Positions 12,510 to 60,568 of a stretch of 64,000 nucleotides of DNA are shown in pieces. Below the pieces are notes generated by a model. The model was not told the DNA's origin and made no database searches. It saw only the letters and a program-made list of their open reading frames with translations. A program made the position numbers and the translations under genes. The stretch lies in assembly GCA_902794075.1 (NCBI GenBank), contig CADBGE010000001.1:208137-272136 (forward strand), given 5' to 3'. Source of the DNA: an uncultured Erysipelotrichaceae bacterium (GTDB lineage Bacteria; Bacillota_I; Bacilli_A; RF39; UBA660). Every line of letters starts with the position of its first letter. Position 1 is the first letter of the stretch.

Positions 12510-13166
12510 TTATATGTTAATGAAATGCGATTCGTTAATGTTTTCTTTTTCATGATCATCTTCATAAATTTCTTCTTCAGGATTATCTTCATCAATGATT
12601 TTTTCAACATCACCTTCTATTGGTACATTAGTTTCTTCATCTTCTTTATCAACTTCTTCTATAATAACATCGGTTGTTTTATCATCCTTAAGATATGATG
12701 AATTTTTTGAATTATCTTCAAGATAGTTTGCGATCATTGCTGTCATGGCAAGCGCGACAATCGGGAGAACGGCTCCCACTATGTATGTGACTAATACTGT
12801 AGTGACATTATCAGGCAAATCAGTCCAAACAAAGATAGGCTCTTTAAAATATTGAAGATCCCCCACATTGTGCTGCATTAGATACTTATATGAACTAAAA
12901 ACATTACCAATTATTTGAACTAAAGTCAATAAAGTCATTAAAGCCCATGGCATAAATCTACTTCTATCTTTACTTGATGTTAGAATAGCAAATAGCACAG
13001 CAGCCTGTCCAATTTCAAATGCAGTACCAAGCATAATGCTCATACCAGTATTGTTTGCTAATCCAAAAAAACTAAAACTATGTATTAACGATACTAACGC
13101 AACAACTGCATATAGTATCGCAAATAATGTTATATATATGTTTCGTTTTGTAAAAAATTTTTTCAT
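12510..13166 (-). CDS. Integral membrane protein with highly acidic C-terminal tail
   Basis: About 4 hydrophobic helices (LFAILYAVVALVSLI, AAVLFAILTS, LMTLLTLVQIIG, VLPIVALAMTAMIA). The C-terminal 50 aa are D/E-rich. Confidence 0.65.
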   Translation of the reverse strand: MKKFFTKRNIYITLFAILYAVVALVSLIHSFSFFGLANNTGMSIMLGTAFEIGQAAVLFAILTSSKDRSRFMPWALMTLLTLVQIIGNVFSSYKYLMQHNVGDLQYFKEPIFVWTDLPDNVTTVLVTYIVGAVLPIVALAMTAMIANYLEDNSKNSSYLKDDKTTDVIIEEVDKEDEETNVPIEGDVEKIIDEDNPEEEIYEDDHEKENINESHFINI

Positions 13167-13216
13167 TTTAATTTTCTTTAACTTTCCTTAATCTTTTTTA
13201 ATTATTTTTTAACATT

Positions 13217-13309
13217 AACTATGTATCTTAGAACATCCCAGACTATATCCAGATCATCATCCAATGACTTTTTATAATCATTTTAATAAATTATATAGTT
13301 GCTATTTTT
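13217..13309. repeat. 93-bp intergenic element, copy A (second copy at 45160-45252)
   Basis: Aligned by eye with 45160-45252: 89/93 identical. Three of the four differences are C/T at the same position of an iterated TC(C/T)A submotif spaced about 11-12 bp apart. Lies between a gene stop (13324) and the next gene start (13166) on the minus strand. Confidence 0.8.
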
Positions 13310-13323
13310 TAATTCATTAGAAG

Positions 13324-13787: not shown

Positions 13788-14303
13788 TTATTTGTCATAT
13801 TCACATGAATCATATTTGAAAACTATATCTGTGTCATTATATGAATTACTTTCATATGCATTAAAGATTTTGTCTAATGTTTCATCGATATTATCTTCTT
13901 CCTCAATCATTAGTTCAAACTTTGAAAACATCATTTTAAATCTTAGTTTTGTCAATCTAAAAGTAACAATTTTTGATTCATCAGGTGCATCTTTTCCAAG
14001 ATTATCGTCATATATTATATCAACAATGTCTTTCTTATAATCAAGTCTTTGAAAACTATCATATTCAAAATAAGCATCATTAATATATTTTACATTATTT
14101 CTAAAATACTTCTTAGCAATGTCTTGATTACTTGGCATCTGTTCTAATAATAGATCATCTATATATTGATGAATGTCATCTTCTTGAAAAGTCTCAGGAC
14201 AGTTAATAAGAATTTCATCTTTATTGCAGTTATATGTAACTTCAAGATTATTTATTGATTTCTGTTCAAATGCTTCTTTTAAATATGTAACTAAGTTTTT
14301 CAT
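13788..14303 (-). CDS. Hypothetical protein with CTS-like N-terminus (MKNLVTYLKE)
   Basis: ATG-start ORF of 171 aa. N-terminal decapeptide matches the MK.L..Y(I/L).E family signature. Confidence 0.6.
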   Translation of the reverse strand: MKNLVTYLKEAFEQKSINNLEVTYNCNKDEILINCPETFQEDDIHQYIDDLLLEQMPSNQDIAKKYFRNNVKYINDAYFEYDSFQRLDYKKDIVDIIYDDNLGKDAPDESKIVTFRLTKLRFKMMFSKFELMIEEEDNIDETLDKIFNAYESNSYNDTDIVFKYDSCEYDK

Positions 14304-22840: not shown

Positions 22841-23785
22841 TTATTTTTTCTCAAGTTCTTTAATTCTTTCCTCTAATTCAGTAATCTTATTTATTAATTT
22901 ACTAACAACTAATGACAAAGAAGAATTATAATCAACAGATTTAACATTATGTATTTCTCCAGAATTATCGGAAGATGTAGTCACAAGTTCAGGATGCATT
23001 TTTTCTAAGTCTTGAGCAACAAATCCATACATATGAGAACCATTCATATTGAACTCATACATATTTATTTCGTCAATGTTCGCAATCTTTTCAATATCCG
23101 TTTTTAATCTTTCATCAGAATTCTCCATGAATTTTGGAGCAACAATCTGACCAGAAGTGCTGTTGGCTTCTAAAGATATTTTATTATTTGGACCAATTCT
23201 AACATAAGTATATGATACACTACTGCTGACATTAAAGTGTAATCCATCAACATTAGTATAATCATTTATAGATATACCTGATCTTGACAAAATTGCTTCA
23301 GGGTATGTTTGTATAAATCCTTGTGAACCACCAATTGTAATAGATCCTTTGTTCCATCCTATGGAAGAATTAGTTATATGTAATCCATCTATATTTCCTG
23401 AATATTGACTCCAATGAATTTCTTGGTCAGTATCGACTTTATTTGAACCGCTCTTTGAAACATAATTAGATATTTGAGAAGAAGTTGATTCAACAGCATC
23501 AAGGCGAGAATTAAGAACAGCCAATCCAATTGCTGTTGTCTGTTCATTCTCAATCATCTTTGTGTATATAACTTTATTCTGAACAGGATTAGTTGAAGTA
23601 TTGTTTAGTGTATCGTCAACTTTAACATGTCCATATGCTGTAGTTGATGCATGAATATTATGATCATTCCATGCTTTTGTAAGAGATTTAGTTGTGCCAT
23701 TATCATTAATTTGAACTAATCCTGCATAAGTAATTGGAAGCAATATGTCACTACCATTTTGTAATTTAATTGGATATGTTGCCAT
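22841..23785 (-). CDS. Tail fibre with C-terminal intramolecular chaperone (peptidase S74-like) domain
   Basis: N-terminal IKL.NG..LLPIT anchor motif shared with the other fibres. C-terminus ...SDERLKTDIEKI....MYGFVAQDLEKMHPELV... matches the endosialidase-type self-cleaving chaperone domain. Confidence 0.75.
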   Translation of the reverse strand: MATYPIKLQNGSDILLPITYAGLVQINDNGTTKSLTKAWNDHNIHASTTAYGHVKVDDTLNNTSTNPVQNKVIYTKMIENEQTTAIGLAVLNSRLDAVESTSSQISNYVSKSGSNKVDTDQEIHWSQYSGNIDGLHITNSSIGWNKGSITIGGSQGFIQTYPEAILSRSGISINDYTNVDGLHFNVSSSVSYTYVRIGPNNKISLEANSTSGQIVAPKFMENSDERLKTDIEKIANIDEINMYEFNMNGSHMYGFVAQDLEKMHPELVTTSSDNSGEIHNVKSVDYNSSLSLVVSKLINKITELEERIKELEKK

Positions 23786-23837
23786 GAATAAATATTGTGA
23801 TTGTTTGTAAAAAACTAATTTTATTTTATATATAAAA

Positions 23838-23931
23838 ATATTTTCCTAAAATGATTTCGTGTATCTATAATAGACGATATATTTTCCTAAAATGATTTCG
23901 TGTATCTATAATAGACGATATATTCTTAAAA
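23838..23931. repeat. 41-bp direct tandem repeat (2.3 copies) in an intergenic region
   Basis: ATATTTTCCTAAAATGATTTCGTGTATCTATAATAGACGAT at 23838-23878 and 23879-23919, plus a partial third copy. Lies upstream of the fibre gene start at 23785 (minus). Confidence 0.85.
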
Positions 23932-23932
23932 A

Positions 23933-27242: not shown

Positions 27243-27260
27243 AAATTACGTTTCGTTAAA

Positions 27261-27274
27261 TATAATTAAAAATA
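27261..27274 (-). promoter_or_regulatory. Recurrent promoter-like motif (minus-strand reading ...TTTTTAATTATA...)
   Basis: One of at least 6 near-identical ATTTTTAATTATAT(A) motifs 25-50 nt upstream of minus-strand ATGs (also near 29178, 33817, 39341, 45529, 50595). Confidence 0.4.
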
Positions 27275-27288
27275 TTAATCAATTATAT

Positions 27289-27326
27289 AAAAAATCCTCC
27301 AAACGCGCGCGTTTGGAGGATTTTTG
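27289..27326. terminator. Bidirectional rho-independent terminator
   Basis: AAAAAATCCTCCAAACGCGC|GCGTTTGGAGGATTTTT, a perfect GC-rich palindrome with A and T tracts. Downstream of fibre gene 27349-29148. Confidence 0.8.
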
Positions 27327-27348
27327 TAAATTATATTTAATATAATTT

Positions 27349-29148: not shown

Positions 29149-29177
29149 TTATATCTTAAACAATATTTTTTTTATTT

Positions 29178-29190
29178 TATAATTAAAAAT
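29178..29190 (-). promoter_or_regulatory. Promoter-like ATTTTTAATTATA motif upstream of gene start at 29148
   Basis: Same motif family as 27261. Immediately follows terminator 29194-29217 in the direction of transcription. Confidence 0.4.
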
Positions 29191-29193
29191 AAA

Positions 29194-29217
29194 ATGGGTG
29201 GGTGCGCACCCACCCAT
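29194..29217. terminator. Rho-independent terminator (palindrome ATGGGTGGGTGC|GCACCCACCCAT)
   Basis: 12-bp perfect inverted repeat, followed on the minus strand by TTTTATTTTT. Downstream of 29245-30834. Confidence 0.75.
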
Positions 29218-29244
29218 AATTATATTGTTATTTTATTATATCTA

Positions 29245-33783: not shown

Positions 33784-33816
33784 ACAGTTAAGTGATATGA
33801 AACTATTTTATATATA

Positions 33817-33832
33817 ATATAATTAAAAATAA
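33817..33832 (-). promoter_or_regulatory. Promoter-like ATTTTTAATTATAT motif upstream of start at 33783
   Basis: Motif family as above. Downstream of terminator 33852-33877 in the direction of transcription. Confidence 0.4.
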
Positions 33833-33851
33833 TTTAGAATGAAAGCATAAA

Positions 33852-33877
33852 AAATCCTGGTCTTAAGACCAGGATTT
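33852..33877. terminator. Rho-independent terminator (AAATCCTGGTCTTAAGACCAGGATTT)
   Basis: Perfect 11-bp stem. On the minus strand it is followed by TTTTTTAT. Downstream of fibre 33903-35525. Confidence 0.75.
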
Positions 33878-33902
33878 GTTCATTTATGTTAAATTAGAAT
33901 TT

Positions 33903-44710: not shown

Positions 44711-44914
44711 TTAATCAATTATCATATTCATTTCATAACATTCACGAATGAACACAAACATATCAAGATTAGTGTTTAGACCACTGCAATTCAATTTTCC
44801 TGGAGAAGATATAAGTTTCCAACCTTCTTGACCAAGTTTGTTCAATTCTTCGCATATGCCCATTGATGACAAGCCATCAAAGCATCGCATAAGATATTCA
44901 TATTTAGTTTTCAT
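44711..44914 (-). CDS. Hypothetical small protein (67 aa)
   Basis: ATG ORF. Overlaps the next ORF by 11 nt. Confidence 0.4.
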   Translation of the reverse strand: MKTKYEYLMRCFDGLSSMGICEELNKLGQEGWKLISSPGKLNCSGLNTNLDMFVFIRECYEMNMIID

Positions 44915-45122
44915 AAAGTCTCATTAAATCTATTTCTATAACCTCAGGTTCCATTTCCCAAGTCATCTTTGAGTGAGATATCATATTGTCTATATTCTTC
45001 TGTACAATTGAATTTACATAAGGTCTTGTTGATACCCATGTCCCAGAATTCATGCATCGTGTTGGCTCAACCGTATGAAGAGATACTTTTCTATTCTTAT
45101 TAACTCCGATAAATATCTGCAT
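44904..45122 (-). CDS. Hypothetical small protein (72 aa)
   Basis: ATG ORF whose start lies 38 bp downstream of repeat copy B. Confidence 0.45.
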   Translation of the reverse strand: MQIFIGVNKNRKVSLHTVEPTRCMNSGTWVSTRPYVNSIVQKNIDNMISHSKMTWEMEPEVIEIDLMRLYEN

Positions 45123-45159
45123 ATTATTTTTTATAAAAAATGTTAAAAATATTAAAGTG

Positions 45160-45252
45160 AACTATGTATCTTAGAACATCCTAGACTATATCTAGATCAT
45201 CATCTAATGACTTTTTATAATCATTTTAATAAATTATATAGTTGCCATTTTT
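45160..45252. repeat. 93-bp intergenic element, copy B (copy A at 13217-13309)
   Basis: See copy A. The flanking sequences are unrelated, so this is a discrete element. Confidence 0.8.
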
Positions 45253-45279
45253 AGAGGCTGTCTAAGATGATATATGAAC

Positions 45280-45510: not shown

Positions 45511-45528
45511 AAGTCATAATCTTATTTT

Positions 45529-45544
45529 TATATAATTAAAAATA
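45529..45544 (-). promoter_or_regulatory. Promoter-like ATTTTTAATTATATA motif upstream of start at 45510
   Basis: Motif family as above. Immediately downstream (in transcript direction) of the dnaJ terminator. Confidence 0.4.
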
Positions 45545-45548
45545 AAAA

Positions 45549-45572
45549 AAGATCTACATAAAGTAGATCTTC
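45549..45572 (-). terminator. Rho-independent terminator of dnaJ
   Basis: AAGATCTAC-ATAAA-GTAGATCTT hairpin. On the minus strand it is followed by TTTTTTTATTTTT. Abuts the dnaJ stop at 45577. Confidence 0.7.
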
Positions 45573-45576
45573 ATTT

Positions 45577-46650
45577 TCATTTATGTTCTTTACGAATTTT
45601 TTCAAGCAATTTTCTTTCTTCTTTATTGATTGATGTAGGCATGATTACATTTATTATATATCTATATTCATATCCATTTATTGTACCTCCATATATGTTC
45701 GCTTCATTTTGCGTGCATTCCTTTAACTTTAGATTAATTGTCTTTCCATTTGGAATTGTCATTTTCATTTCTTTACCAATAATTGCGTCATAATATGGAA
45801 CATCAATCTTTTCATATATTGTTCTTCCTTGTACAAGATATTTATTCTTATCATACTGATGAAGCAATATGACTTGTAAATCTCCAGTAGGTGCTCCAGG
45901 AGTCTTACTTTCACATCCTGCACCATTTATAACAAGTGTATGTCCATTTTGACATCCTTTAGGAATATTAATCGTTACACTATTTTCTTTACTAATTAGA
46001 CCTTCACCATGGCATTTTTTACATTTATTCTTAATGATTTTTCCAGTGGCGCCACAGTATTGGCATGGATGAGAATTCTGTACCATTCCAAATCCAGTTC
46101 TATGAATCTCTGTGATCATACCAGTTCCATGACAATGCGGGCAAGTATCAACTCCAGTACCACCAGTTCCGTTACAGTCAGTACATCTTACATTACGATT
46201 ATATTTAAATGTTTTTTCTCCACCGTCAAGAATCTCCTTAATTCCAATTCCAACTTGTATTCTCAAGTTCTGACCAGGTTCTGGTCCTCTTGGTTGCTGT
46301 TGACGAGGTCTTCCACTGCCTCCAAAGAAACGTTCGAATCCTCCTAAATCAAAATCATCAAAGAATGAACTGAAATGAGAGAACATATCCGCACCACCAG
46401 ACCAGCCTTGCCCATAATTGTCCATACTTCCGTATCGGTCATAATGCGCTCTCTTGTTAGCATCAGACAAGCATTCATATGCTTCCTGGACATCCTTGAA
46501 GTTTTCCTCAGCTTTCTTTTTCTCATCATCTGACTTTCCTGCCTGTCTATCCGGATGATACTTCAAACACATTTTCTTATACTGCTTCTTTAAGTCATCT
46601 TCTGTGAAGTTCTTATCAACTCCTAAAATTTTATAGTAGTCTTTAGCCAT
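45577..46650 (-). CDS. dnaJ: DnaJ (Hsp40) co-chaperone, full type I
   Basis: J domain with HPD (DYYKILGV...YHPDRQ). G/F-rich region. Four CxxCxGxG zinc-finger repeats (CTDCNGTG, CPHCHGTG, CQYCGATG, CKKCHGEG). C-terminal substrate-binding domains. Confidence 0.9.
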   Translation of the reverse strand: MAKDYYKILGVDKNFTEDDLKKQYKKMCLKYHPDRQAGKSDDEKKKAEENFKDVQEAYECLSDANKRAHYDRYGSMDNYGQGWSGGADMFSHFSSFFDDFDLGGFERFFGGSGRPRQQQPRGPEPGQNLRIQVGIGIKEILDGGEKTFKYNRNVRCTDCNGTGGTGVDTCPHCHGTGMITEIHRTGFGMVQNSHPCQYCGATGKIIKNKCKKCHGEGLISKENSVTINIPKGCQNGHTLVINGAGCESKTPGAPTGDLQVILLHQYDKNKYLVQGRTIYEKIDVPYYDAIIGKEMKMTIPNGKTINLKLKECTQNEANIYGGTINGYEYRYIINVIMPTSINKEERKLLEKIRKEHK

Positions 46651-46712
46651 AATATTAAAAAAATCTTATATAAAAATTAACAATATTAAAATATTAATTT
46701 TATTATTAAATT

Positions 46713-47258
46713 TCAATCGTTATACAATATAATGATTTTAAATTTTTCTATATTGTCAACATCAAACTTTCCTCTCTTAAAAAGTGATCTTCCTATTATA
46801 TACATCAGCACATCATCATCTTTTATACGAATAAGCTGTACGTTGTTCTTTGATGCTCGAGAATTTGATTGAAACAACAATTCAGATAAATCTTCTTCAT
46901 TTGCAATAGTAATAATTTCTTTCAACATTTTATTCTTCCCATAATTGTCAGGGCGATACTTATGATACCATAATAATTTGATATGATCATATTCATTAAT
47001 GTTATTTATTATTTCATCAGCAAAATTAAGTAATCTATTGGTAACACCTCCATCTTTATCTGTGACCCATAGCCAGGTATATTGGATTGCATCTTTTGAA
47101 ACTTTCGCATCAATATTTTGCGGATCACACCATATTTTCTTTGCAAGTTCCAATAATTGACTTGCCGTATCTATGTAATCTTTGTTGATAATTAATTTTT
47201 CATCAAATCGTTTATTGATGATAAGACGTTCTTCTATATGCTGAGACAATGATTTCAT
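46713..47258 (-). CDS. Hypothetical protein with CTS-like N-terminus (MKSLSQHIEE)
   Basis: 181 aa. The N-terminus carries the family signature followed by the (E)KLIINK(D/N)(Y/F) second motif shared with 47255, 50630 and 54273. Confidence 0.6.
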   Translation of the reverse strand: MKSLSQHIEERLIINKRFDEKLIINKDYIDTASQLLELAKKIWCDPQNIDAKVSKDAIQYTWLWVTDKDGGVTNRLLNFADEIINNINEYDHIKLLWYHKYRPDNYGKNKMLKEIITIANEEDLSELLFQSNSRASKNNVQLIRIKDDDVLMYIIGRSLFKRGKFDVDNIEKFKIIILYND

Positions 47259-47950
47259 TTTTCTAGTACATCAAATATTTCTTTAGTATATTTATACATT
47301 TTTTCACATTCTTCATATATATCAAATATTTCTCTTAATGACTTTGGATGAACTGCTTTACCATTTGGTGTTTTTAACTTATTTTCACGAATGAATTTTC
47401 GTGCTTCCTTTGATGAATTGAACAGCATACCGTTAAACGTGGTATAAAAGCCATGTGCTGTTTTTCCTAAATTATTTATTCTTGATGATGTATCTATAAA
47501 ATTCCATTTTGCATAAAAACCGAACAAGTTATCAAGAAGATAATCGCCAAGTTTATCTTTTAATCTATATAAACCCCATATCCAATTGTCCATACCATAT
47601 CTGCTGTCATACGGTGAATCATTTAGATTTGTTTTGTTTTCTTTTTTAATGAATAAATGCGGTTCTCCATCAACATCATATACCTTATAAATGAACTTAT
47701 AAATCATTTTATTCTCTTCATAATATTGGTTCATTATATCTGCAACTGATGTAGATATTTTAGTTGTGTCTTTTAATGAATCTATATCAAATTCTTTAAA
47801 ATCTTTATTAACTATTAACTTTTCAGCAATATTTACATTTTGATGTAAAGCTTTGCTTTCAGCAATATTTACATTTTGATGTAAAGCTTTGCTTTCAGCA
47901 ATATATTTTTCAACAATATTTTCATTAATATATTTGACTAATGATTTCAT
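47255..47950 (-). CDS. Hypothetical protein with CTS-like N-terminus (MKSLVKYINE) and internal 12-aa duplication
   Basis: 231 aa. AESKALHQNVNI is repeated twice, encoded by a 36-bp DNA tandem repeat at 47822-47893. ATGA overlap with the downstream gene. Confidence 0.6.
   Translation of the reverse strand: MKSLVKYINENIVEKYIAESKALHQNVNIAESKALHQNVNIAEKLIVNKDFKEFDIDSLKDTTKISTSVADIMNQYYEENKMIYKFIYKVYDVDGEPHLFIKKENKTNLNDSPYDSRYGMDNWIWGLYRLKDKLGDYLLDNLFGFYAKWNFIDTSSRINNLGKTAHGFYTTFNGMLFNSSKEARKFIRENKLKTPNGKAVHPKSLREIFDIYEECEKMYKYTKEIFDVLEK
47822..47905. repeat. 36-bp in-frame tandem duplication (2.3 copies) inside CDS 47255-47950
   Basis: TTCAGCAATATTTACATTTTGATGTAAAGCTTTGCT occurs twice, plus a partial third copy. 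Confidence 0.8.
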
Positions 47951-47960
47951 ATTTTATAAT

Positions 47961-48497
47961 TTATATATATTTCTTGTCAGTTTCACAGAATATTGGTTTG
48001 ATGTTCTTTATGTTTGCCCATTTACAGAATTTTCCAAATGTATCATATAACTGCACTCGTGGAAGATATTCATTAACTAACAATACATAATGAATTTTAC
48101 CATTATGACGAATCATCTTTAGTTCCATTGTTTCATTTTGTATTGATAACTGTTGTCCTTCGCCAAGTTGCGTCAATGCTGTTGTCATTTGTTTTTGAAC
48201 TTTATGAGATGGAAGCATTGAAATGATTGCTGCTTTTTCATCAGTACTTAAGTTTGATGATTTTCTTGCAATGTATTTTTTATTATTTCTTTCCCATGTT
48301 TCATCCGTATCCTGGAACTGTTTGTTGACTATCATACAAGCGTTTTCATAAGTTATAAGATGATAGCTTTCATTTTCCATTTCATACACACGTCTATCAT
48401 CACCATCATTCCATGGTGAAATCTGCAGATAATGAGTTGGTAGCATCTTAAACACTTTGTTATCTGCAGTACATATGTAATAGGAATTTTCTTTCAT
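47961..48497 (-). CDS. Hypothetical protein (178 aa)
   Basis: ATG ORF between dnaK and the MKSL genes. No recognisable GrpE features. Confidence 0.55.
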   Translation of the reverse strand: MKENSYYICTADNKVFKMLPTHYLQISPWNDGDDRRVYEMENESYHLITYENACMIVNKQFQDTDETWERNNKKYIARKSSNLSTDEKAAIISMLPSHKVQKQMTTALTQLGEGQQLSIQNETMELKMIRHNGKIHYVLLVNEYLPRVQLYDTFGKFCKWANIKNIKPIFCETDKKYI

Positions 48498-48570
48498 TTG
48501 CTTTATAAAATATTATATATAAAAATCAAAAATCAAGCTTTTTCATTTTAATGAAAATAAAAATCAAAAA

Positions 48571-48603
48571 ATAGTGAGTGGGCTCAATTGCCACACCCAC
48601 TAT
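48571..48603 (-). terminator. Terminator downstream of the Hsp70 gene
   Basis: ATAGTGAGTGGGC-TCAATTG-CCACACCCACTAT imperfect hairpin. On the minus strand it is followed by TTTTTTGATTTTTATTTT. Confidence 0.55.
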
Positions 48604-48631
48604 TTCATTAGTCATAATCTTATATAGTGTA

Positions 48632-50548
48632 TCATTTGACTTCCTCAGCTTGTACATCTTCAGCATCCTTGAATGGATTGTCTCCACCCATCTGAGCAAA
48701 TGGATTGCTCTGCGCTTGCTGAGACTGTTCACCTTGCTTTGGAGCAGATTCCTGATAGATTCTAGTGATGATTGGTTGATAGTAATCCTCAAGTGCCTTA
48801 CGAGCAGGCTCAATCTTCTCGAGATCCTTTGTCTGCAGTTGTTCATCAAATTCTTTCAGAAGTTCATTAATCTTCTCTTTCTCCTCATCAGTGAACTTGC
48901 TGCCCATGTGCTCATCCTTCAATGATGCTTCAACGGCATACTTATATCCTTCTGCAGTATTCAGCTTGTCAATCTCTTCTTTCTTTTTCTTGTCCTCTTC
49001 AGCATGATCTGCAGCATCTTTCTTGATACGGTCAATTTCTTCTTGAGATAGCGAATTGCCCTTCTCAATAGTGATGTGTTGTTCCTTTTGAGTACCAAGA
49101 TCCTTTGCAGTGACTGTCAAGATACCGTTAGCATCCATCTCAAATGTAACCTCAATCTGAGGAACGCCACGAGGAGCAGGAGCAATGCCGTCCAAGTTGA
49201 ATTGACCAATGATCTTATTGTCACGACTCATAGGACGCTCACCCTGAAGAACAATGATACTTACTGCAGGTTGGTTATCAACAGCAGTTGTGAATACTTG
49301 AGACTTACGAACAGGAATAGTTGTGTTTGCATCAATCAATTTACCCATCTGACTTCCGTTCACCTCGATACCGAGTGAGATAGGTGTTACATCAAGAAGA
49401 AGAACATCAGTGTCAGAAGTGTTGCCCACCAAGATGTTTGCCTGGATTGCAGCACCTTCAGCTACAGCAAGGTCAAGGTCAGCTTTATGAATTAATTCAA
49501 CACCGAACTTATCGGTAAGACGCTTCTGAAGAAGAGGAATACGGCAAGAACCACCAACCAAGATAATACCATCAAGAGTACAGTTTGCCTTTTCACGAGC
49601 ATCCTCAGCACACTTGATTACTTTATCTACATACTTGCTTGCGATATTCTCAAATGCTGCTTTGTTAAGTTTCTTAACAAAGTGTTTAGGCATACCGTCA
49701 ATTGCTGTAATATATGGTAGGTTAATTTCAGTCTCAGTAACTCCTGACAGTTCAATCTTTGCTTTCTCTGCAGCCTCAACTACACGTTGCATAGCCATAG
49801 GATCCTTGCTTAAGTCAAAATTCTCCTGTTTCTTGAACTCATCAACGATCCATTGTGCGACTGCATTGTCAATATCTGCACCACCAAGCCATGTATCGCC
49901 ATAACTTGAAAGTACTTCAATCAGTTGAGAATCTTTGTCATAATCAAGAACAGTTACATCTGTAGTGGAACCACCAAAATCCACAACAGCATACTTACCT
50001 GATTTCTCCAGTTTACTTGCAAGACATGCCGCAGTAGGCTCATTGATGATACGCAATACATTTAGACCAGCAAGTTCACCAGCCTCTTTAGTAGCATTAC
50101 GCTGTGAATCATCAAACAATGCAGGAACTGTAATGACAGCATCTTCGACGGAATGGCCAAGATATTCCTCAGCCTGCTTCTTTAGTTCTTGAAGAATCCA
50201 TGAACTGATTTCTTGTGGAGAATACTCCTTATCGTTAATCTTTACATAGGGATAGCCATTATGATTCACAACATCATAATGCAAGTGCTTGATAGCATCC
50301 TGAGCTTCTTCCCAGTTGCGTCCAATTAGTCTCTTAATTAAATTGATTGTTTGTTTAGGTTTCATCAACATTTGACGCTTTGCTGATGAGCCTACACGAC
50401 GCTCACCATTGTCATCGATGTTGACTACTGATGGAAATGTTTTAGAACCTTCTGCGGTAAGTACAATAGCCGGACGGCCGTTTTCCATCACACATACTTC
50501 CGACATTGTTGACCCAAGGTCAACACCAATTGCTTTCTTGTTGCTCAT
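48632..50548 (-). CDS. dnaK: Hsp70-family chaperone (divergent DnaK homolog)
   Basis: 638 aa. N-terminal phosphate-1 motif AIGVDLGSTMSEV (compare IGIDLGTTNS). DFGGSTTDVTVL (compare DLGGGTFD). ILVGGSCRIPLLQ (compare LVGGQTRMP). A substrate-binding domain and a charged C-terminal tail follow. Confidence 0.85.
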   Translation of the reverse strand: MSNKKAIGVDLGSTMSEVCVMENGRPAIVLTAEGSKTFPSVVNIDDNGERRVGSSAKRQMLMKPKQTINLIKRLIGRNWEEAQDAIKHLHYDVVNHNGYPYVKINDKEYSPQEISSWILQELKKQAEEYLGHSVEDAVITVPALFDDSQRNATKEAGELAGLNVLRIINEPTAACLASKLEKSGKYAVVDFGGSTTDVTVLDYDKDSQLIEVLSSYGDTWLGGADIDNAVAQWIVDEFKKQENFDLSKDPMAMQRVVEAAEKAKIELSGVTETEINLPYITAIDGMPKHFVKKLNKAAFENIASKYVDKVIKCAEDAREKANCTLDGIILVGGSCRIPLLQKRLTDKFGVELIHKADLDLAVAEGAAIQANILVGNTSDTDVLLLDVTPISLGIEVNGSQMGKLIDANTTIPVRKSQVFTTAVDNQPAVSIIVLQGERPMSRDNKIIGQFNLDGIAPAPRGVPQIEVTFEMDANGILTVTAKDLGTQKEQHITIEKGNSLSQEEIDRIKKDAADHAEEDKKKKEEIDKLNTAEGYKYAVEASLKDEHMGSKFTDEEKEKINELLKEFDEQLQTKDLEKIEPARKALEDYYQPIITRIYQESAPKQGEQSQQAQSNPFAQMGGDNPFKDAEDVQAEEVK

Positions 50549-50576
50549 AATAAAATATGTTAATAAATTTGTAGCT

Positions 50577-50594
50577 CAGGTTGTTGCCAACCTG
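50577..50594 (-). other. Hairpin in the 5' leader of the Hsp70 gene
   Basis: CAGGTTG-TTGC-CAACCTG (7-bp stem). Lies between the promoter-like motif (50595-50610) and the ATG at 50548. No adjacent T-tract on either strand. Confidence 0.4.
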
Positions 50595-50610
50595 TATATA
50601 ATTAAAAATA
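50595..50610 (-). promoter_or_regulatory. Promoter-like ATTTTTAATTATATA motif upstream of Hsp70
   Basis: Motif family as above, about 47 nt upstream of the ATG. Confidence 0.4.
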
Positions 50611-50629: not shown

Positions 50630-51136
50630 TTAATGATGTATCTCATTAAAAATTTCTTTTAATGAATCAAATATTTCTTTGTCTATTATAAAATAATTTA
50701 CTGCTGTTCCAGGATATTCTAATGAGGACTTGTTAAATAATGATATGTTTTTTAATTGCTGTGCTTCTACATAACGAATTTGAACATCATTAATGTATCT
50801 AATTCGAATGTCATCATATAAATTTACATATTTGTCATGTCTTTGTAAACGATGAACTAAAAATAAATTTTGTATAACTTCATTAAAGCCACATACATAT
50901 TCACCTTCATTGGCAATGACATTCATCTTATTGAATGATATCTCTTTACCAGACCTTTTTATATAATTAATTATGTCTTTAAACGCATTTTTATCTTTTG
51001 TGTTAATTGTATATAAATGAGATGACCATGAATAGCTTCTTAAAGTATCTTCAAAACTTTCTGATTTGAAATTTTTGTTGATGACAAGTTTTTCATTAAA
51101 AAATGACTCATGCAAATGCTGTTTTAATGATTTCAT
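50630..51136 (-). CDS. Hypothetical protein with CTS-like N-terminus (MKSLKQHLHE)
   Basis: The ORF-track start at 51172 is a GTG that overlaps the upstream stop. The first ATG (51136) gives the family N-terminus MKSLKQHLHESFFNEKLVINKNF, so it was preferred. Confidence 0.55.
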   Translation of the reverse strand: MKSLKQHLHESFFNEKLVINKNFKSESFEDTLRSYSWSSHLYTINTKDKNAFKDIINYIKRSGKEISFNKMNVIANEGEYVCGFNEVIQNLFLVHRLQRHDKYVNLYDDIRIRYINDVQIRYVEAQQLKNISLFNKSSLEYPGTAVNYFIIDKEIFDSLKEIFNEIHH

Positions 51137-51168: not shown

Positions 51169-51597
51169 TCACTTCATTTGCCTTATAATTTCAATAACTT
51201 TACTACCATCTGCTGCAGGATATTTATCTTTCACATATCCCATGATGTGCTTCATGTTTTGTGGCTTAGGTTCATAACCACTATCAATGATTGCTTGCTT
51301 CAATTCATCTTGACTAGGAACCTTAGGCAAGAAACTTTGAAGAATATTCAATCGTTCAGTTAGTTCTGTGACATCCCTATTTGCTTTAATGAACATATCT
51401 CTCTCATCCTGCCATGACTTTTCCATCTTCATAAGAATTGAGATCTCTTTTGCGTCATTGAAATCACTTTTCTTGAATCCCTTGCTTGTCTTATATTCAA
51501 GAAATTTTGCCTTAATCATTTTCAGTACATAAAGACGATTTGCATCTTTTGACTTCATCGCGTCTGCAATTTCCTTATTAATGTTCTCTCTAAGCAT
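51169..51597 (-). CDS. GatB/YqeY-domain protein
   Basis: 142 aa. MLRENINKEIADAMKSKDANRLYVLKMIKAKFLEY... resembles the YqeY/GatB C-terminal domain family. Confidence 0.55.
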   Translation of the reverse strand: MLRENINKEIADAMKSKDANRLYVLKMIKAKFLEYKTSKGFKKSDFNDAKEISILMKMEKSWQDERDMFIKANRDVTELTERLNILQSFLPKVPSQDELKQAIIDSGYEPKPQNMKHIMGYVKDKYPAADGSKVIEIIRQMK

Positions 51598-51623
51598 AAT
51601 TTTAATTATTTTTTTTTAATTTA

Positions 51624-51809
51624 TTAATTACAACGTACCGCTGTATCACATAATGTTGCCTTTTCAATATGAAGCAAGTTCTTGTAATAACTATTTTCAA
51701 TATATTGTTCACATGCTTCTTTATCGGTTGTCCAATGAGTTTCTGCACTCTTGTAATTATAATTATCAATGCATACAACACGATAAATTTCTTGAATTGT
51801 AAATGTCAT
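51624..51809 (-). CDS. Hypothetical small Cys-containing protein (61 aa)
   Basis: ATG ORF directly downstream of rtcB. Confidence 0.4.
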   Translation of the reverse strand: MTFTIQEIYRVVCIDNYNYKSAETHWTTDKEACEQYIENSYYKNLLHIEKATLCDTAVRCN

Positions 51810-51813
51810 AATT

Positions 51814-53034
51814 TTAATTATTTGCTTTAAAATTGTAAAGTGGTTTAATTTGCTTGATAATATCTACTGTATCACCAATTGCATTGATAATTGATTCCAT
51901 AGGCTTATATGCCATAGGTGCTTCATCAATAGTATCAGTGTTGACTGAAGTAGTATAAATACCCTTCATAGAATTTTTGAAATCTTCCATGTTCAATTCA
52001 GCTTTTGCCTTAGAACGACTCATTATACGACCTGCTCCATGAGGTGCAGAATAATTCCAATCCGCATTACCCCTACCAACACAAATCAATGAACCATCTC
52101 TCATGTTCATGGTGATAATCAAATTTTCACCATCCGCCGCAGAAACAGCTCCTTTACGAAGCATCATATATTCATCAATATAATTATGAGTAGTAAATAT
52201 ATGTTCATCGAATTTCCAATTCATATATTTACCAATTACCTGACAAATAGTTTCATGATTTATATATGCGAATTGTGAACACTTCCACATATCATTAATG
52301 TAACCTGAAAAATCATCGCCATCGAGATTCTTATCAAGATATGCCATTTCATTAGAAACTGCAGGGCGTTTAATTTTCTTAAGTTCTGACTGAATCTCCT
52401 TTTCACGTCCTTCTGCTTTCAAACGCTTAATAAGTTCATCAACTTCACCCTTCTTTGATGTTCTATTCTGAATTGCCTTAGTCTGCCAATACTTGCACAC
52501 TTCAACACCTAAATGACGAGAACCACAATGAATAAGAAGATATACTTCATTTGTCTCCTCGCACCATTCTACAGAAATAAAATGATTACCTCCGCCAAGT
52601 GTTCCTAAAGAATATAGTGTATATCTCTTATTAATTGGACATTTAATCTCGTCAAGAAAATTTACACATTGTTTTTGCATACTCGCAGGAACATCATCAA
52701 GTACATTACGAATATTGGTTCCTGAAGGAATATGCTCATGAATCACATTATCTAATTTTTCTTTAACAGTATCAAACCACTGCTTTCCATTTACCTTCTT
52801 AGGTAACTTAATGCGATGTGCTGATACGGTACATCCGATGTCGACGCCAACGAAATTAGGAGTAATCTTATCAGTAATCTGCATGGTTGTACCAACAGTA
52901 CAGCCTTTACCAGCATGGCAATCAGGCATCATACGAATAATGTTGTTCTTATATGCATCTGACTTAGCCATTGCATAAATCTGGTTCAGAGCCTCGGGCT
53001 CAACAATCTCTGCATATATCTTTAAAGTTTCCAT
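51814..53034 (-). CDS. rtcB: RtcB-family RNA 3'-phosphate/2',3'-cyclic phosphate ligase
   Basis: Signature motifs CHAGKGCTVG, GGGNHFISVEW and HGAGR (APHGAGRIMS) are present. 406 aa. Confidence 0.9.
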   Translation of the reverse strand: METLKIYAEIVEPEALNQIYAMAKSDAYKNNIIRMMPDCHAGKGCTVGTTMQITDKITPNFVGVDIGCTVSAHRIKLPKKVNGKQWFDTVKEKLDNVIHEHIPSGTNIRNVLDDVPASMQKQCVNFLDEIKCPINKRYTLYSLGTLGGGNHFISVEWCEETNEVYLLIHCGSRHLGVEVCKYWQTKAIQNRTSKKGEVDELIKRLKAEGREKEIQSELKKIKRPAVSNEMAYLDKNLDGDDFSGYINDMWKCSQFAYINHETICQVIGKYMNWKFDEHIFTTHNYIDEYMMLRKGAVSAADGENLIITMNMRDGSLICVGRGNADWNYSAPHGAGRIMSRSKAKAELNMEDFKNSMKGIYTTSVNTDTIDEAPMAYKPMESIINAIGDTVDIIKQIKPLYNFKANN

Positions 53035-53925: not shown

Positions 53926-54276
53926 TTATGATTCTAATTTTTCCAATGCGTCAGGCCCTTCATATTCATAATCACCCCATAAATCATTTTCATCAACCCA
54001 ATTCAAAAAATTAATTAATGGAATAATGTCATCTTTTATATTATTTCTATTTATGACTGGCCAATTATTTGTATCATCAAGAACATCATATAGATCGTTC
54101 ATTTGTTGTTTTTCTTCATCAGATAATACATTCCAATATTCAGAATACTTTTTTATTTCAGAATCTTCACCAATATTTCCTGTTAATAGACCGACCAAGG
54201 ATGCTATAGCGTCTCTTTCACTTTCTGTTAGTTTAAAATATCTTGTTTCATTTATATAAGTTATTAATGATTTCAT
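53926..54276 (-). CDS. Hypothetical acidic protein with CTS-like N-terminus (MKSLITYINE)
   Basis: 116 aa. Last gene of a 3-gene overlapping MKSL array. Confidence 0.6.
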   Translation of the reverse strand: MKSLITYINETRYFKLTESERDAIASLVGLLTGNIGEDSEIKKYSEYWNVLSDEEKQQMNDLYDVLDDTNNWPVINRNNIKDDIIPLINFLNWVDENDLWGDYEYEGPDALEKLES

Positions 54277-55073
54277 TCTACTCCTTTTGGTTTATATTTA
54301 TTTACTATATTGCAATTACTGAACATTTTGTCCGTTTTTGCTGTATCTTTAATTTTCCATTTACTTAAGTTACAATTAAAATTTTCGCACCATCCAAACA
54401 TCCAAGAAAAATTCTCTCCTTTACTAACATTCCATTTACTTAAATCATAATTAAATTTTGAACAACCATAAAACATTGAATCAAAGTTTGTTGAATTACT
54501 TACATCCCATTTACTTAAATCTGAATTGAAATTTGGGCAGTTAAAGAACATTTTTTTAAAAGTCTGGCCGTTTCTAACATTCCATTTTCTTAAATCGCCA
54601 TTAAATTTTATACAGTCTTCAAACATCCAATAAAAAAATTCTCCATTACTTACATCCCATTCGCTTAAGTTTTGATTAAATTTTTTACATTCATAAAACA
54701 TTGCTCCAAAATTCTCTCCATTGCGAACATCCCAATTGCTTAAGTCGCAATTGAATTTTTTACACCCATAAAACATATAATAAAAATCCTTACCATTACT
54801 TACATCCCATTTACTAATATCAAAATCTTTATTTCCGGTATTTTTATCTTGTAGAAACAATTTGCTAAAATCAGTTATTTCGGATACGTCTATATCATTT
54901 AAGTCATATATGCCTTTATTATAATGTTCACGTATTGCTAATTCTAATTCATTTCTGTCTTTTGGGTGATAATTATAAATGTCACTATAATTTTTATTAA
55001 TGACAAGTTTTTCATCTACTTGTGATGGAATAATGATAAGTTTTTCAGATATGTAATTTATTAATGACTTCAT
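54273..55073 (-). CDS. DUF285 / BspA-like repeat protein with CTS-like N-terminus (MKSLINYISE)
   Basis: About 7 tandem 23-aa repeats SKWDVSNG..F..MF..C.KFN.DL. The N-terminus has the family motif plus EKLVINKNY. Confidence 0.7.
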   Translation of the reverse strand: MKSLINYISEKLIIIPSQVDEKLVINKNYSDIYNYHPKDRNELELAIREHYNKGIYDLNDIDVSEITDFSKLFLQDKNTGNKDFDISKWDVSNGKDFYYMFYGCKKFNCDLSNWDVRNGENFGAMFYECKKFNQNLSEWDVSNGEFFYWMFEDCIKFNGDLRKWNVRNGQTFKKMFFNCPNFNSDLSKWDVSNSTNFDSMFYGCSKFNYDLSKWNVSKGENFSWMFGWCENFNCNLSKWKIKDTAKTDKMFSNCNIVNKYKPKGVE

Positions 55074-55453
55074 TTCATAAAATTAAATTTTTTTCTATTA
55101 AAAACTACAATACCAATATTATCATTAAGTATTGTATCATAATTATATATCTCACGATCATCATCAACATTAACTATAATTCCGTTATCTGAACTTTCAT
55201 ATTTATATATATTTGATGTATCAACAATATTATAATATGAAGAATCTGTTTCAATAATTTTACAGATTACATATTCATTGTCATTACCAAATTCTTTATT
55301 TTCTAATTTATTAAATATTCTTTTAATGCTATTTTCATTTTCAATAGCAATTCCTAAAACAATATTATCTGGTATTCTATTACCACTTTCTGAACATTTA
55401 AGTCTGAATGGTGCTGGGCCGCGTTCATTAATGTATTCTACTAAACTTTTCAT
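55070..55453 (-). CDS. Hypothetical protein with CTS-like N-terminus (MKSLVEYINE)
   Basis: The ORF-track start at 55495 adds 14 AT-rich codons. The internal ATG at 55453 gives a near-consensus family N-terminus, so it was preferred. Confidence 0.55.
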   Translation of the reverse strand: MKSLVEYINERGPAPFRLKCSESGNRIPDNIVLGIAIENENSIKRIFNKLENKEFGNDNEYVICKIIETDSSYYNIVDTSNIYKYESSDNGIIVNVDDDREIYNYDTILNDNIGIVVFNRKKFNFMK

Positions 55454-55550
55454 TTTTATGTTGATAAAATTTATATATATAAAAATAAAATCCATAAAGT
55501 ATATGCGTATATATCACAAATATTTTTAAATATATACTTCATTAAATATC

Positions 55551-58032: not shown

Positions 58033-58773
58033 TTAAAATGATTTTACAAATTTAATAAGTTCAGCAGGAATATTGTGATATGTGAATATTGCTTCCTCTT
58101 CTTTCATTGCAGTATCTTTATATATTGGAATATTGTGAACATGGTTAAAATCAATTTTTAATACTGAAATATTATCATTGCAATTTAATATCTTATCACA
58201 AAAATCTTTTACTTTATCGGTTAATTTTCCATTGTTAAATATTCTTTCATTTGTTTTATATAAGAAAATACGTTCAGGAAAATTACGATATTTTGCCTTT
58301 TTACATCTTAGCCCATTCTTTAATATACTCTCCACATTTTTTGTATATGTAAAATGATAACAAATATTATGATATTCATTTAAATCAACAGTTTTAGAGT
58401 ATGTTGGTTCAATGAATAATAACTTTGTTTTAATATCAACACCAGACAAATAATACCCATAAAATTCTAAAATTCTTTTGAATTTTTTGTCGTTTGATAA
58501 ATATATGTAATTTGATTTATTTACCTTTATTGTGAATGAGCCATTATCATAATCATCAAATTCTATTTCATATTCATTATTGAATTCTTGAAATAACTTT
58601 GATTTTAGTTTTTCAACATCATGTGAATTTAAAGCTTCAAGAATATAATCAATGTTTGCGTCAATATTATTGGGATCTAAATCTTCATTAAAAAAATCAC
58701 ATAATGATTCATAGTATTGTCTCCACCAAAATTTCTTTGAACTTTCATTAATAAATTCTTTTAATGTTTTCAT
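58033..58773 (-). CDS. ADP-ribosyltransferase-fold (Tpt1/PARP-like) protein with CTS-like N-terminus (MKTLKEFINE)
   Basis: Paralog of 61847-62755 (ILEFYGYYLSG...HNICYHFTYTKNVESILKNGLRCKKAKYRNFPERIFLY versus IIEFYGYYISG...HNICYHFTDNKSAESILKNGLRCKSGSYREYPERIYLY). H-x-T...GL...R pattern. Confidence 0.55.
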   Translation of the reverse strand: MKTLKEFINESSKKFWWRQYYESLCDFFNEDLDPNNIDANIDYILEALNSHDVEKLKSKLFQEFNNEYEIEFDDYDNGSFTIKVNKSNYIYLSNDKKFKRILEFYGYYLSGVDIKTKLLFIEPTYSKTVDLNEYHNICYHFTYTKNVESILKNGLRCKKAKYRNFPERIFLYKTNERIFNNGKLTDKVKDFCDKILNCNDNISVLKIDFNHVHNIPIYKDTAMKEEEAIFTYHNIPAELIKFVKSF

Positions 58774-59983: not shown

Positions 59984-60568
59984 TCAAAATTTACTTCTAT
60001 ATTTTTCTAATAATTCTTCAATATTATTTTTAATTTCTGGATATCGGCACCTCAGTCTCCATCTAAACTTCAGTTCATCATTCATACGAATTGCATTGAC
60101 TACTTCAACACCGTTCAATATATCAACGCATATTTTAGCATCACGTTCTGTGATTCCCTCATAAGTATCTGTCTGAACAAAATTGAACAACTGATAATCA
60201 CACATATCGGAATCATCATCAAGAATTACATAACTATCCACTTCAGGATGTTCATTCATATAGAATCTGATTTCATCACCACGCAATCCGCCAATGCTTT
60301 CCGTCATTCCAATAATGTTGTTAATGAACTTGTCAAACTCTTTTTTAAAGTGATCTAAATATTGGTTCTTGATGAAGTACTGTTTCAAAGATTCATGAAA
60401 AGCAGACACAACATTAGCATAACCAATTCTCCAAGAAGATGTAACAACAATCTTTGCATCCGTTTTGTCGCAGATATCATTGATTATCTTAACATTATTC
60501 ATATCAATCTTCCACCGTGTATTAAGTGTGGTTATCACACCATCAAAATCAAGAAATAGTATTTTCAT
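59984..60568 (-). CDS. HAD-superfamily phosphatase (polynucleotide 3'-phosphatase / nucleotidase-like)
   Basis: HAD motif I ILFLDFDGVITT (DxDGV), motif II IVVTSSW, motif IV VILDDDSD. Confidence 0.6.
   Translation of the reverse strand: MKILFLDFDGVITTLNTRWKIDMNNVKIINDICDKTDAKIVVTSSWRIGYANVVSAFHESLKQYFIKNQYLDHFKKEFDKFINNIIGMTESIGGLRGDEIRFYMNEHPEVDSYVILDDDSDMCDYQLFNFVQTDTYEGITERDAKICVDILNGVEVVNAIRMNDELKFRWRLRCRYPEIKNNIEELLEKYRSKF

Follow-up and report, generated by a model that had tools for sequence, protein, structure and literature searches.

Genes for translation and proteostasis are known from huge phages, and the chaperones among them have so far been mentioned in passing. Earlier surveys recorded DnaK from huge phages and DnaJ from jumbo ones. 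The Lak preprint states that the genomes "encode multiple molecular chaperones", and no more (10.1101/356790), and DnaK and DnaJ of "moraphages" were described in 2025 (PMC12619734). The present analysis concerns a stretch of 64,000 nucleotides (hereafter the window) of contig CADBGE010000001.1, positions 208,137 to 272,136, filed under an uncultured Erysipelotrichaceae bacterium (GCA_902794075.1). Its minus strand carries at 45577–50548 five genes, encoding 638, 178, 231, 181 and 357 amino acids (aa), of which the first is an Hsp70 and the last a DnaJ. The two probably represent a working DnaK-type Hsp70 of a phage lineage and its class A DnaJ partner, both derived from an old megaphage grpE-dnaK-dnaJ module that is shared with Lak. 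The module would be old and shared because hsp70 and dnaJ are adjacent in Lak and in the P0071-type and P0029-type relatives, because the relative L152 has an operon with a Lak-like GrpE, and because the leader element of hsp70 is common to Lak and the present clade. Gene identity, residue conservation, clade membership, synteny and the covarying RNA structure were established directly. The chaperone pair adds to the DnaK and DnaJ already known from megaphages; what is new is the leader RNA element.

An earlier note on this DNA, made from the letters alone, regarded virus-encoded Hsp70 homologues as rare, with the closterovirus protein as the known precedent. The collections do not agree with this. 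By tblastn, full-length Hsp70 and DnaJ homologues are present in all 15 Lak megaphage genomes examined, and homologues also occur in several uncultured phages of 630–735 kb. Moraphages encode both proteins, giant-virus metagenome-assembled genomes also carry DnaK/DnaJ, and PHROGs already holds full-length families for Hsp70 (phrog_22485) and DnaJ (phrog_14336). Other matches in the collections look like bacterial contigs filed as phage, several with whole hrcA-grpE-dnaK-dnaJ operons. DnaK/DnaJ genes are rare among phages generally and appear to be regular in megaphages.

Relatives and origin of the two chaperones

The genes are phage-borne, as the earlier note had it. Several assemblies have an identical Hsp70 on contigs 400,026 to 400,076 bp long (the 400,026-bp contig is ERZ27280413:k141_844548), and relatives with 59–85% identity occur on contigs of 318–423 kb. 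The best explanation is that the window is part of an animal-gut megaphage of about 400 kb; the sample labels may point to a rumen and pig-gut origin of the relatives. Among 50,697 phage records, megablast found none that matches the region, and the Hsp70 clade was not found in IMG/VR.

The Hsp70 is divergent. In a trimmed alignment of 594 columns it is 46–52% identical to 84 bacterial DnaKs, which are 56–83% identical to one another. The Hsp70s of Lak (48% to bacteria) and of two IMG/VR contigs are as remote from bacteria as that of the window, and those of LR756502 and the IMG/VR locus L010 resemble ordinary DnaKs, with 60–69% identity to bacteria. A scan of 185,579 bacterial and archaeal species genomes returned nothing above 51% identity, and its best matches span many phyla; the scan takes one genome per species and is limited to genes sharing short peptides with the query, which a near-identical gene would share. 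In an exhaustive HMMER search of 1.84 billion cluster representatives the best match was 55% identical and the next full-length ones 50–52%. The best 120 matches of a search over 5.8 billion proteins are all at least 59% identical, and none of them stands under an organism name. Outside the clade the closest Hsp70s are from huge phages, at 54–55% identity, versus 52% or less for bacteria. The clade of the ~400-kb phages is monophyletic in 92.5% of 200 neighbour-joining bootstraps; next to it branch the two IMG/VR huge-phage contigs, followed by Lak, and the support for this placement is weak. The method was neighbour-joining only, and gut Bacteroidales DnaK is not among the sampled sequences.

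These values bear on the idea that a host (Bacteroidota) dnaK-dnaJ operon was captured recently and has not adapted to the phage. Such a capture would explain the bacterial DnaK-type architecture and C-terminus of the Hsp70, and the Lak GrpE is closest to Bacteroidales GrpEs, which fits a bacterial source of the original module. The identity to bacterial DnaKs nevertheless falls below their mutual identity, no bacterial genome of the species scan exceeds 51%, the best 120 matches lack an organism name, and the clade has synapomorphies of its own. The base composition offers the idea little help. The Hsp70 has a G+C content of 41.6% against about 30% in its surroundings (window positions 48001–50000); at third codon positions (GC3) the rise is mild, 0.34 versus a genome mean of 0.21 ± 0.07, and the excess lies mostly at first codon positions. 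It fits amino-acid constraint, not recent import. The near-identical copy of host dnaK that the earlier note had named as its refutation was not found, and recent capture is close to refuted. By these comparisons the Hsp70 is not a recent host capture; the Hsp70 and DnaJ of this widespread clade of 400-kb gut and rumen phages belong to an old and fast-evolving megaphage lineage and are not recent host loot.

The Hsp70 matches the Pfam family HSP70 (PF00012) over the full model (1–599/599, E=1e-193) and phrog_22485 at full length. The nucleotide-binding domain, linker, substrate-binding domain and lid are all present. PDB matches span residues 5–612; among solved structures, mitochondrial Hsp70 and E. 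coli DnaK come closest (E=1e-159 to 1e-147). The non-canonical ATPase motifs first read in the 638-aa protein were confirmed: DLGSTMS replaces DLGTTNS and DFGGSTTD replaces DLGGGTFD, and both variants are invariant in 18 clade members that are 60–85% identical. In E. coli numbering, verified on the annotated Salmonella DnaK, residues D8, K70, E171, D194, T199 and D201 are all kept, and alignment to DnaK shows that the linker (DVLLLDVTP) and the substrate-pocket residues are kept as well. The substitutions are T11S, N13M, G198S, F200T, Y145L and M404N. T11S preserves the hydroxyl, which is reportedly the essential feature of DnaK position 11. Divergence together with invariant variant motifs bears out the view that the protein is under selection, and conservation says that it would be functional.

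The exposed loop 28–34 has the same length as in DnaK, with an AEG core, and K57, R58, E258 and E261 of the phage protein correspond to the DnaK salt-bridge residues K55/R56-E264/E267. This loop and these salt bridges are said to mark GrpE-dependent DnaK-type proteins. The identity is 38% to an HscA versus about 50% to DnaKs. By loop, salt bridges and identity, the phage Hsp70 has the features of the GrpE-dependent DnaK subtype, not of HscA/HscC.

The DnaJ is a complete class A (type I) J-domain protein, in line with the earlier description. It contains the Pfam domains DnaJ, DnaJ_CXXCXGXG and DnaJ_C, an HPD motif at residues 32–34 followed by a G/F-rich stretch, and four zinc-finger motifs (CTDCNGTG, CPHCHGTG, CQYCGATG and CKKCHGEG), and phrog_14336 matches it at full length (E=9e-68).

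The hsp70 leader element

The 7-bp hairpin noticed at 50577–50594 in the hsp70 leader is real by several measures. It consists of CAGGTTG and CAACCTG around a GCAA loop, with -10.7 kcal/mol and z=-3.6 versus shuffles, and it covaries in 34 distinct sequences. Relatives as far as Lak carry a hairpin in this place before hsp70, with a very different stem sequence. The plan of the element is a CA...UG stem, AGC(U/A)AC(A/U)AAA, about 20–30 AU-rich bases, an ACAUA block and the AUG. JGI metagenomes were scanned with a pattern that joins the tail to the 11 opening bases of the open reading frame (ORF) and leaves the hairpin out, and 35 among the 120 matches listed precede an Hsp70 ORF. In 29 of 30 distinct leaders the minimum-energy hairpin begins with CA and ends exactly at the same G (median z -3.4). 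The eight basal pairs are 97% paired in the 34 sequences, versus 69.6% after shuffling (0 of 500 shuffles reach the observed value) and 20–39% when the partner is slid. Double changes occur at six of the eight basal pairs, in 76 cells. The covariation alignment was anchored by hand at the hairpin ends, which favours pairing, a bias that the independent retrieval of the 30 leaders addresses. Among the stem pairs G.U outnumbers A.C 16 to 1, indicating that the structure would form on the sense strand, i.e. in the mRNA.

A covariance model of the element recognises a single site in the window (34.3 bits, E=6e-6), with 16 bits for the runner-up, and over 45 loci searched it matches only upstream of hsp70. 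No match was found in the bacterial dnaK loci or LR phages searched, and no Rfam family matches. The element is common to Lak and the clade, though their Hsp70s are only 55% identical. It is best described as a new, well-supported structured RNA element specific to hsp70, and it provides a concrete handle on how a phage may control its own chaperone.

A chance hairpin of AT-rich DNA, or the terminator of the upstream gene, was considered. AT-rich DNA readily forms hairpins, and the stop codon of the gene upstream lies 35 nt before this one. No U-run stands 3′ of it, however, and it comes after the promoter-like motif, not before. A hairpin that starts with CA and is flush with the same G in all but one of the independently retrieved leaders, that shows compensatory changes at most of its basal pairs, and that is kept between phages with so diverged Hsp70s, leaves such an origin already refuted for practical purposes.

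An AT-rich -10-like block ends 6–9 nt before the CA, and the hairpin may stand at the very 5′ end of the mRNA. The leader tail CUGAGCUACAAAU (50566–50578) nearly repeats the start of the Hsp70 ORF, AUGAGCAACAAGA (50535–50547). The 3′ foot and tail read (U/C)UG AGC WAC WAA A and the ORF start AUG AGC AAC AAR A, also in Lak and other relatives. An upstream UUG/CUG is paired in the hairpin, and the first codons of the ORF are copied after it. A 5′-terminal stabilising stem-loop is, tentatively, the foremost candidate for the role of the leader. A decoy start or short upstream ORF, gated by the stem and tuning translation, would be a lesser possibility, and a protein-binding site seems rather doubtful.

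Other readings of the leader were rejected. An RNA thermometer (ROSE/fourU) would mask the ribosome-binding site or the start codon of its ORF, and the hairpin ends at 50577, 28 nt before the AUG (50548). The CIRCE consensus is an inverted repeat, TTAGCACTC-N9-GAGTGCTAA; the stem of the leader differs in sequence in every lineage, and none resembles this HrcA operator. No CIRCE or known heat-shock operator was found at the phage chaperone genes. An intrinsic terminator is rejected since the hairpin is followed by AGCUACAAA and not by a U-run. A sigma-70 -35/-10 reading of the TTGAGC...CATAAT blocks fails because their distance is not constant (14 to 21 nt). Nor was a conserved peptide of an upstream ORF upheld: length, frame and stop vary by lineage, and only the first four or so codons are kept.

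GrpE, J-protein coupling and the proposed chaperone cycle

No GrpE was found in the window by a Pfam scan of 68 ORFs (all families with E below 3e-4), and GrpE hidden Markov models run against six-frame translations of the window returned noise (best E about 0.4). The 9,984 bp past the window's upper end, where a nearby grpE would have spoken against the earlier note, hold none, including the clade-specific type of L152. The 74 kb seen are 18.5% of the ~400-kb genome, and "no GrpE" cannot be claimed from such a part. The earlier statement that the pair comes without a GrpE holds for the window and is not supported as a property of the phage, since related megaphages keep the gene at a distance from dnaK. 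All 15 Lak genomes have grpE; its distance to dnaK-dnaJ is 18 kb in Lak-B and about 130 kb in Lak-A. In LR756502 it lies directly upstream of dnaJ, LR756504 also encodes GrpE, and one more distant IMG/VR contig has grpE and hsp70 30 kb apart.

Within the clade, L152 is informative. Its Hsp70 is 68% identical to that of the window and has the same GSTxSE motif, and it lies in a compact operon of the order grpE-hsp70-dnaJ, whose grpE overlaps the start of hsp70. The L152 GrpE has 143 aa and is most similar to the Lak GrpEs (E about 1e-24). Because of this operon and its Lak-like GrpE, the ancestral module probably included grpE, which in the window phage would therefore have been lost or moved. 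If the window phage has no GrpE, this would be a secondary loss, given the clade's ancestry. No homologue of the L152 GrpE was found in the window, in the 10 kb past its upper end or in the other clade loci fetched, and no GrpE was found within 6–10 kb on either side of hsp70 (less at contig ends) in eight other clade lineages. A 195-aa ORF directly upstream of hsp70 in the relative L132 was tested as a cryptic GrpE and rejected. Database searches with a Lak/LR profile and with P0167, which proved a Lak relative, returned only Lak-family and bacterial GrpEs. These searches are weak negatives for the clade, because the L152-type GrpE was not listed by them either.

A two-component system, in which grpE is truly lost and the Hsp70 uses the host GrpE or a faster intrinsic nucleotide exchange, has a little less than an even chance. 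It agrees with the lack of GrpE in the locus itself, in 23 kb upstream of hsp70 and in 45 kb downstream of dnaJ, as well as near hsp70 in the eight other lineages, and with the fact that no GrpE cluster among those listed stands on contigs of the clade's size. The small part of the genome seen, the remote grpE of Lak-A and the insensitivity of the searches to the L152-type GrpE reduce its weight. The Hsp70 also keeps the features said to be tied to GrpE dependence; from the retained 28–34 loop and salt bridges, some GrpE, of phage or host, is predicted to be needed.

Tyr145 (in VPAYF) was reported by Kityk et al. (2015) to be invariant in the Hsp70 family (PMC4595643). DnaK Y145A has a basal ATPase raised 15-fold, loses the DnaJ response and fails in complementation, and bulky Phe or His at this position is partly functional (PMC4595643). 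The residue is Leu in the window Hsp70 and Leu or Met throughout the clade; it is Phe in L008, Met in L015 and Trp in Lak. This change says more than the ATPase motif variants listed in the earlier note. Activity of the phage Hsp70 is expected because position 145 keeps a bulky side chain, and the J-protein coupling is possibly altered. Co-adaptation of the Hsp70 with the phage DnaJ is a hypothesis that this replacement raises, and the replacement offers a natural experiment on Hsp70 allostery and co-chaperone specificity.

A specialised role has also been weighed, either as a virion-assembly or packaged component, as with Hsp70h, or as a decoy in counter-defence, which would titrate host immunity that depends on DnaJ or DnaK, or the host sigma-32 control. 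The change at Tyr145, critical for the DnaJ response (PMC4595643), and a variable arch residue speak for it. The neighbours RtcB, YqeY and HAD_SAK_2 are of the host-takeover and repair kind and not structural genes, and counter-defence roles have been discussed for phage chaperones and for the J-protein of phage RB43 (PMC12619734). Complete canonical domains, a co-inherited class A DnaJ, and GrpE, HSP20 and an FtsH-like protease in relatives point instead to general proteostasis, and no signal or targeting leader was found on the Hsp70. We regard a specialised role as improbable. Also unlikely, if slightly less so, is a reading that joins all the peculiarities: a private Hsp70–DnaJ pair with rewired coupling (Tyr145 to Leu/Met, altered phosphate loops), no phage GrpE, and a hairpin-gated leader switch from Lak to the clade, in which the UUG/CUG at the stem's 3′ side and the copied ORF codons would act as decoy start or short upstream ORF.

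The preferred reading remains a working phage-lineage pair from an old module; its chaperone activity, clients, GrpE source and leader role we infer as follows. DnaJ would deliver unfolded phage proteins to the Hsp70 and trigger its ATP hydrolysis. Release of the client would need a GrpE-type exchange factor, supplied about equally probably by the host or by a phage copy elsewhere in the genome. The pair would in this way give the phage folding capacity of its own during the production of a very large proteome. That the clients are the giant 3155-aa protein, the fibres or packaged cargo, as the earlier note proposed, is speculation. In the window phage the module appears pulled apart, with three genes between hsp70 and dnaJ and grpE off its L152 position. 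The hsp70 unit would run from the promoter-like motif through the leader stem-loop of the sense-strand RNA and the ORF to the terminator, and the stem-loop most likely controls the stability or translation of the hsp70 mRNA.

Several points weigh against this reading. The coupling to DnaJ may differ from the textbook cycle, given the loss of Tyr145 throughout the clade, and the arch residue Met404 is Asn in the phage Hsp70 and variable within the clade. The deeper placement of the Hsp70, i.e. joint monophyly with Lak, is provisional and weakly supported. GrpE is missing from the surroundings of both genes and from the clusters listed on contigs of the clade's size. If transcription starts within the 5′ arm, the hairpin would be prevented from forming in the mRNA.

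Locus layout and comparison with known systems

The features of the locus are collected in Table 1.

Table 1. Features of the chaperone locus and its upstream neighbours (window coordinates)
Feature	Position	Strand	Basis or remark
RtcB	51814-53034	-	Pfam; upstream neighbour of hsp70
YqeY	51169-51597	-	Pfam; upstream neighbour of hsp70
Leader-family gene	50630-51136	-	upstream neighbour of hsp70
Promoter-like phage motif ATTTTTAATTATAT	50596-50609	-	exact copy, directly upstream of the hsp70 leader hairpin
Leader element: stem-loop (50577-50594) and invariant tail AGCUACAAA (50566-50576)	50566-50594	-	covariance model
DnaK-type Hsp70, 638 aa	48632-50548	-	Pfam, PDB, phrog_22485
Terminator-like hairpin and U-run UUUUUUGAUUUUU, 3′ of hsp70	48568-48606	-	-22.1 kcal/mol, z=-5.4
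Promoter-like motif before the three-gene insertion	48515-48526	-	exact motif match
Three inserted genes	46713-48497	-	without Pfam match
Promoter-like near-match ATTTTTATATAA, upstream of dnaJ	46666-46677	-	1 mismatch, read from sequence
DnaJ, class A (type I), 357 aa	45577-46650	-	three Pfam domains, phrog_14336
Terminator-like hairpin and U-run, 3′ of dnaJ	45548-45572	-	-13.2 kcal/mol, z=-5.6

The motif ATTTTTA(N0-2)TATAT occurs 18 times in the window versus 0.92 expected. Nearly all copies are intergenic, upstream of genes and in the orientation of the gene, which suggests a promoter function. A generic sigma-70 promoter scan of the window was uninformative (44 sites versus 48.8 expected). 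Such a motif had been noted before both chaperone genes; it is exact before hsp70 and differs at one position before dnaJ. Because each gene has its own upstream motif and its own downstream hairpin with U-run, hsp70 and dnaJ each look like a separate transcription unit with a putative promoter and terminator-like hairpin.

Intergenic cassettes of a GC-rich terminator hairpin, a T-run and then the same motif are repeated, for example at 27243–27348, 29149–29244, 33784–33902 and 45511–45576. They resemble the promoter/stem-loop cassettes of T4-type phages. Near-identical intergenic stretches of about 100 nt (..GGCAACTATATAATTTATTAAAATGATTATAAAAAGTCATTGGATGATGATCTGGATATAGTCTGGGATGTTCTAAGATACATAGTT..) stand at 13167–13316 and 45123–45272, upstream of 12510–13166 and 44904–45122, and within 23786–23932, upstream of the gene 22841–23785, a unit of about 46 nt (ATATATCGTCTATTATAGATACACGAAATCATTTTAGGAAAATAT) is directly repeated in tandem, in two copies.

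The three genes between hsp70 and dnaJ have no Pfam match and at most one marginal PHROG match (E=0.0016). They had been described as three leader-family genes; the number stands, and the leader MKSL..I.E is found only on 46713–47258 and 47255–47950, 47961–48497 being without it. The motif EKLI(I/V)NK is also on these two. A gap of 70–190 bp separates hsp70 from dnaJ in the relatives with 62% and 73% identity, in Lak and in many metagenome contigs; in the tblastn matches to Lak the distance is about 250 bp. Other lineages have 2, 5, 6 or 7 unrelated genes in the gap, including a methylase and HSP20. Because relatives carry from none to seven unrelated genes there, the three genes are best taken as a variable insertion at a hot spot and not as part of the chaperone unit.

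The leader MK(S/T/N)Lxx(Y/F/H)(I/L)xE opens eight otherwise unrelated minus-strand proteins in the window, at 13788–14303, 46713–47258, 47255–47950, 50630–51136, 53926–54276, 54273–55073, 55070–55495 (at an internal Met) and 58033–58773, four of which also contain EKL(I/V)(I/V)NK(D/N)(F/Y). This N-terminus resembles MKTYQEFIAE, the capsid-targeting sequence of T4, behind whose Glu the prohead protease cuts. By this likeness the leader-family proteins may be packaged or ejected internal proteins.

On the other side of hsp70, the order RtcB-(YqeY)-Hsp70 is kept in the 84% and 95% relatives, and L152 has grpE at that position. The RtcB and YqeY genes (51169–53034) and a gene with the RNA-repair domain HAD_SAK_2 (59984–60568) are near hsp70. 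The neighbourhood of hsp70 in L132 contains an FtsH-like protease, IF3 and a sigma-70 factor, and those in L150 and L151 contain HSP20.

Among the closest described systems is that of Lak (Lak-A/B/C, Prevotella phages of 540–552 kb). The Lak Hsp70 is 53–55% and the DnaJ 38–40% identical to those of the window. In Lak, dnaK and dnaJ are neighbours, in the order seen in the window, and hsp70 is preceded by the same covarying stem-loop with the tail AGCAACAAAA. The Lak Hsp70s are likewise long-branched, with altered phosphate motifs and Y145W. Lak differs in that it encodes grpE, in its motif variants (DLGTGNS and DLGCGTED) and, for Lak-B, in an Hsp70 interrupted by an insertion of about 560 bp.

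In Lak-B4 (L122, MK250023.1; 6630–7180) about 560 bp that contain no ORF interrupt the Hsp70 gene within its phosphate-2 motif (..NDLGC / GTEDVS..), and the insertion has a sub-threshold match to group I introns (17 bits, E=0.11). In six other Lak-B genomes and in Lak-C1 the Hsp70 also matches in two separate places.

The bacterial KJE system (E. coli type) shares the architecture, catalytic residues, linker, GrpE loop and salt bridges, and a class A DnaJ; the phage system differs from it in an identity of 45–52%, in the lack of grpE in the 74 kb and in the three unrelated genes that split hsp70 and dnaJ. ROSE and fourU thermometers and CIRCE are, like the phage leader, conserved hairpin-forming elements in heat-shock gene leaders. 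The phage hairpin, however, leaves the AUG uncovered, and its stem sequence is free to vary, so that it is not a sequence-specific operator.

Moraphages and LR756501-4 and LR745206 (630–735 kb) are also huge phages with DnaK and DnaJ. The moraphage DnaKs nest within Flavobacteriaceae, indicating a recent transfer (PMC12619734). Compared with LR756502 and L010, which have canonical motifs and the high identity to bacteria given above, the window clade is much more diverged, and the LR phage genes are without the leader element, unlike those of the clade. Hsp70h of the closteroviruses, plant RNA viruses in which it serves virion assembly and movement, is another virus Hsp70 homologue. The protein of the window is set apart from it as a bacterial DnaK-type Hsp70 with a co-inherited DnaJ.

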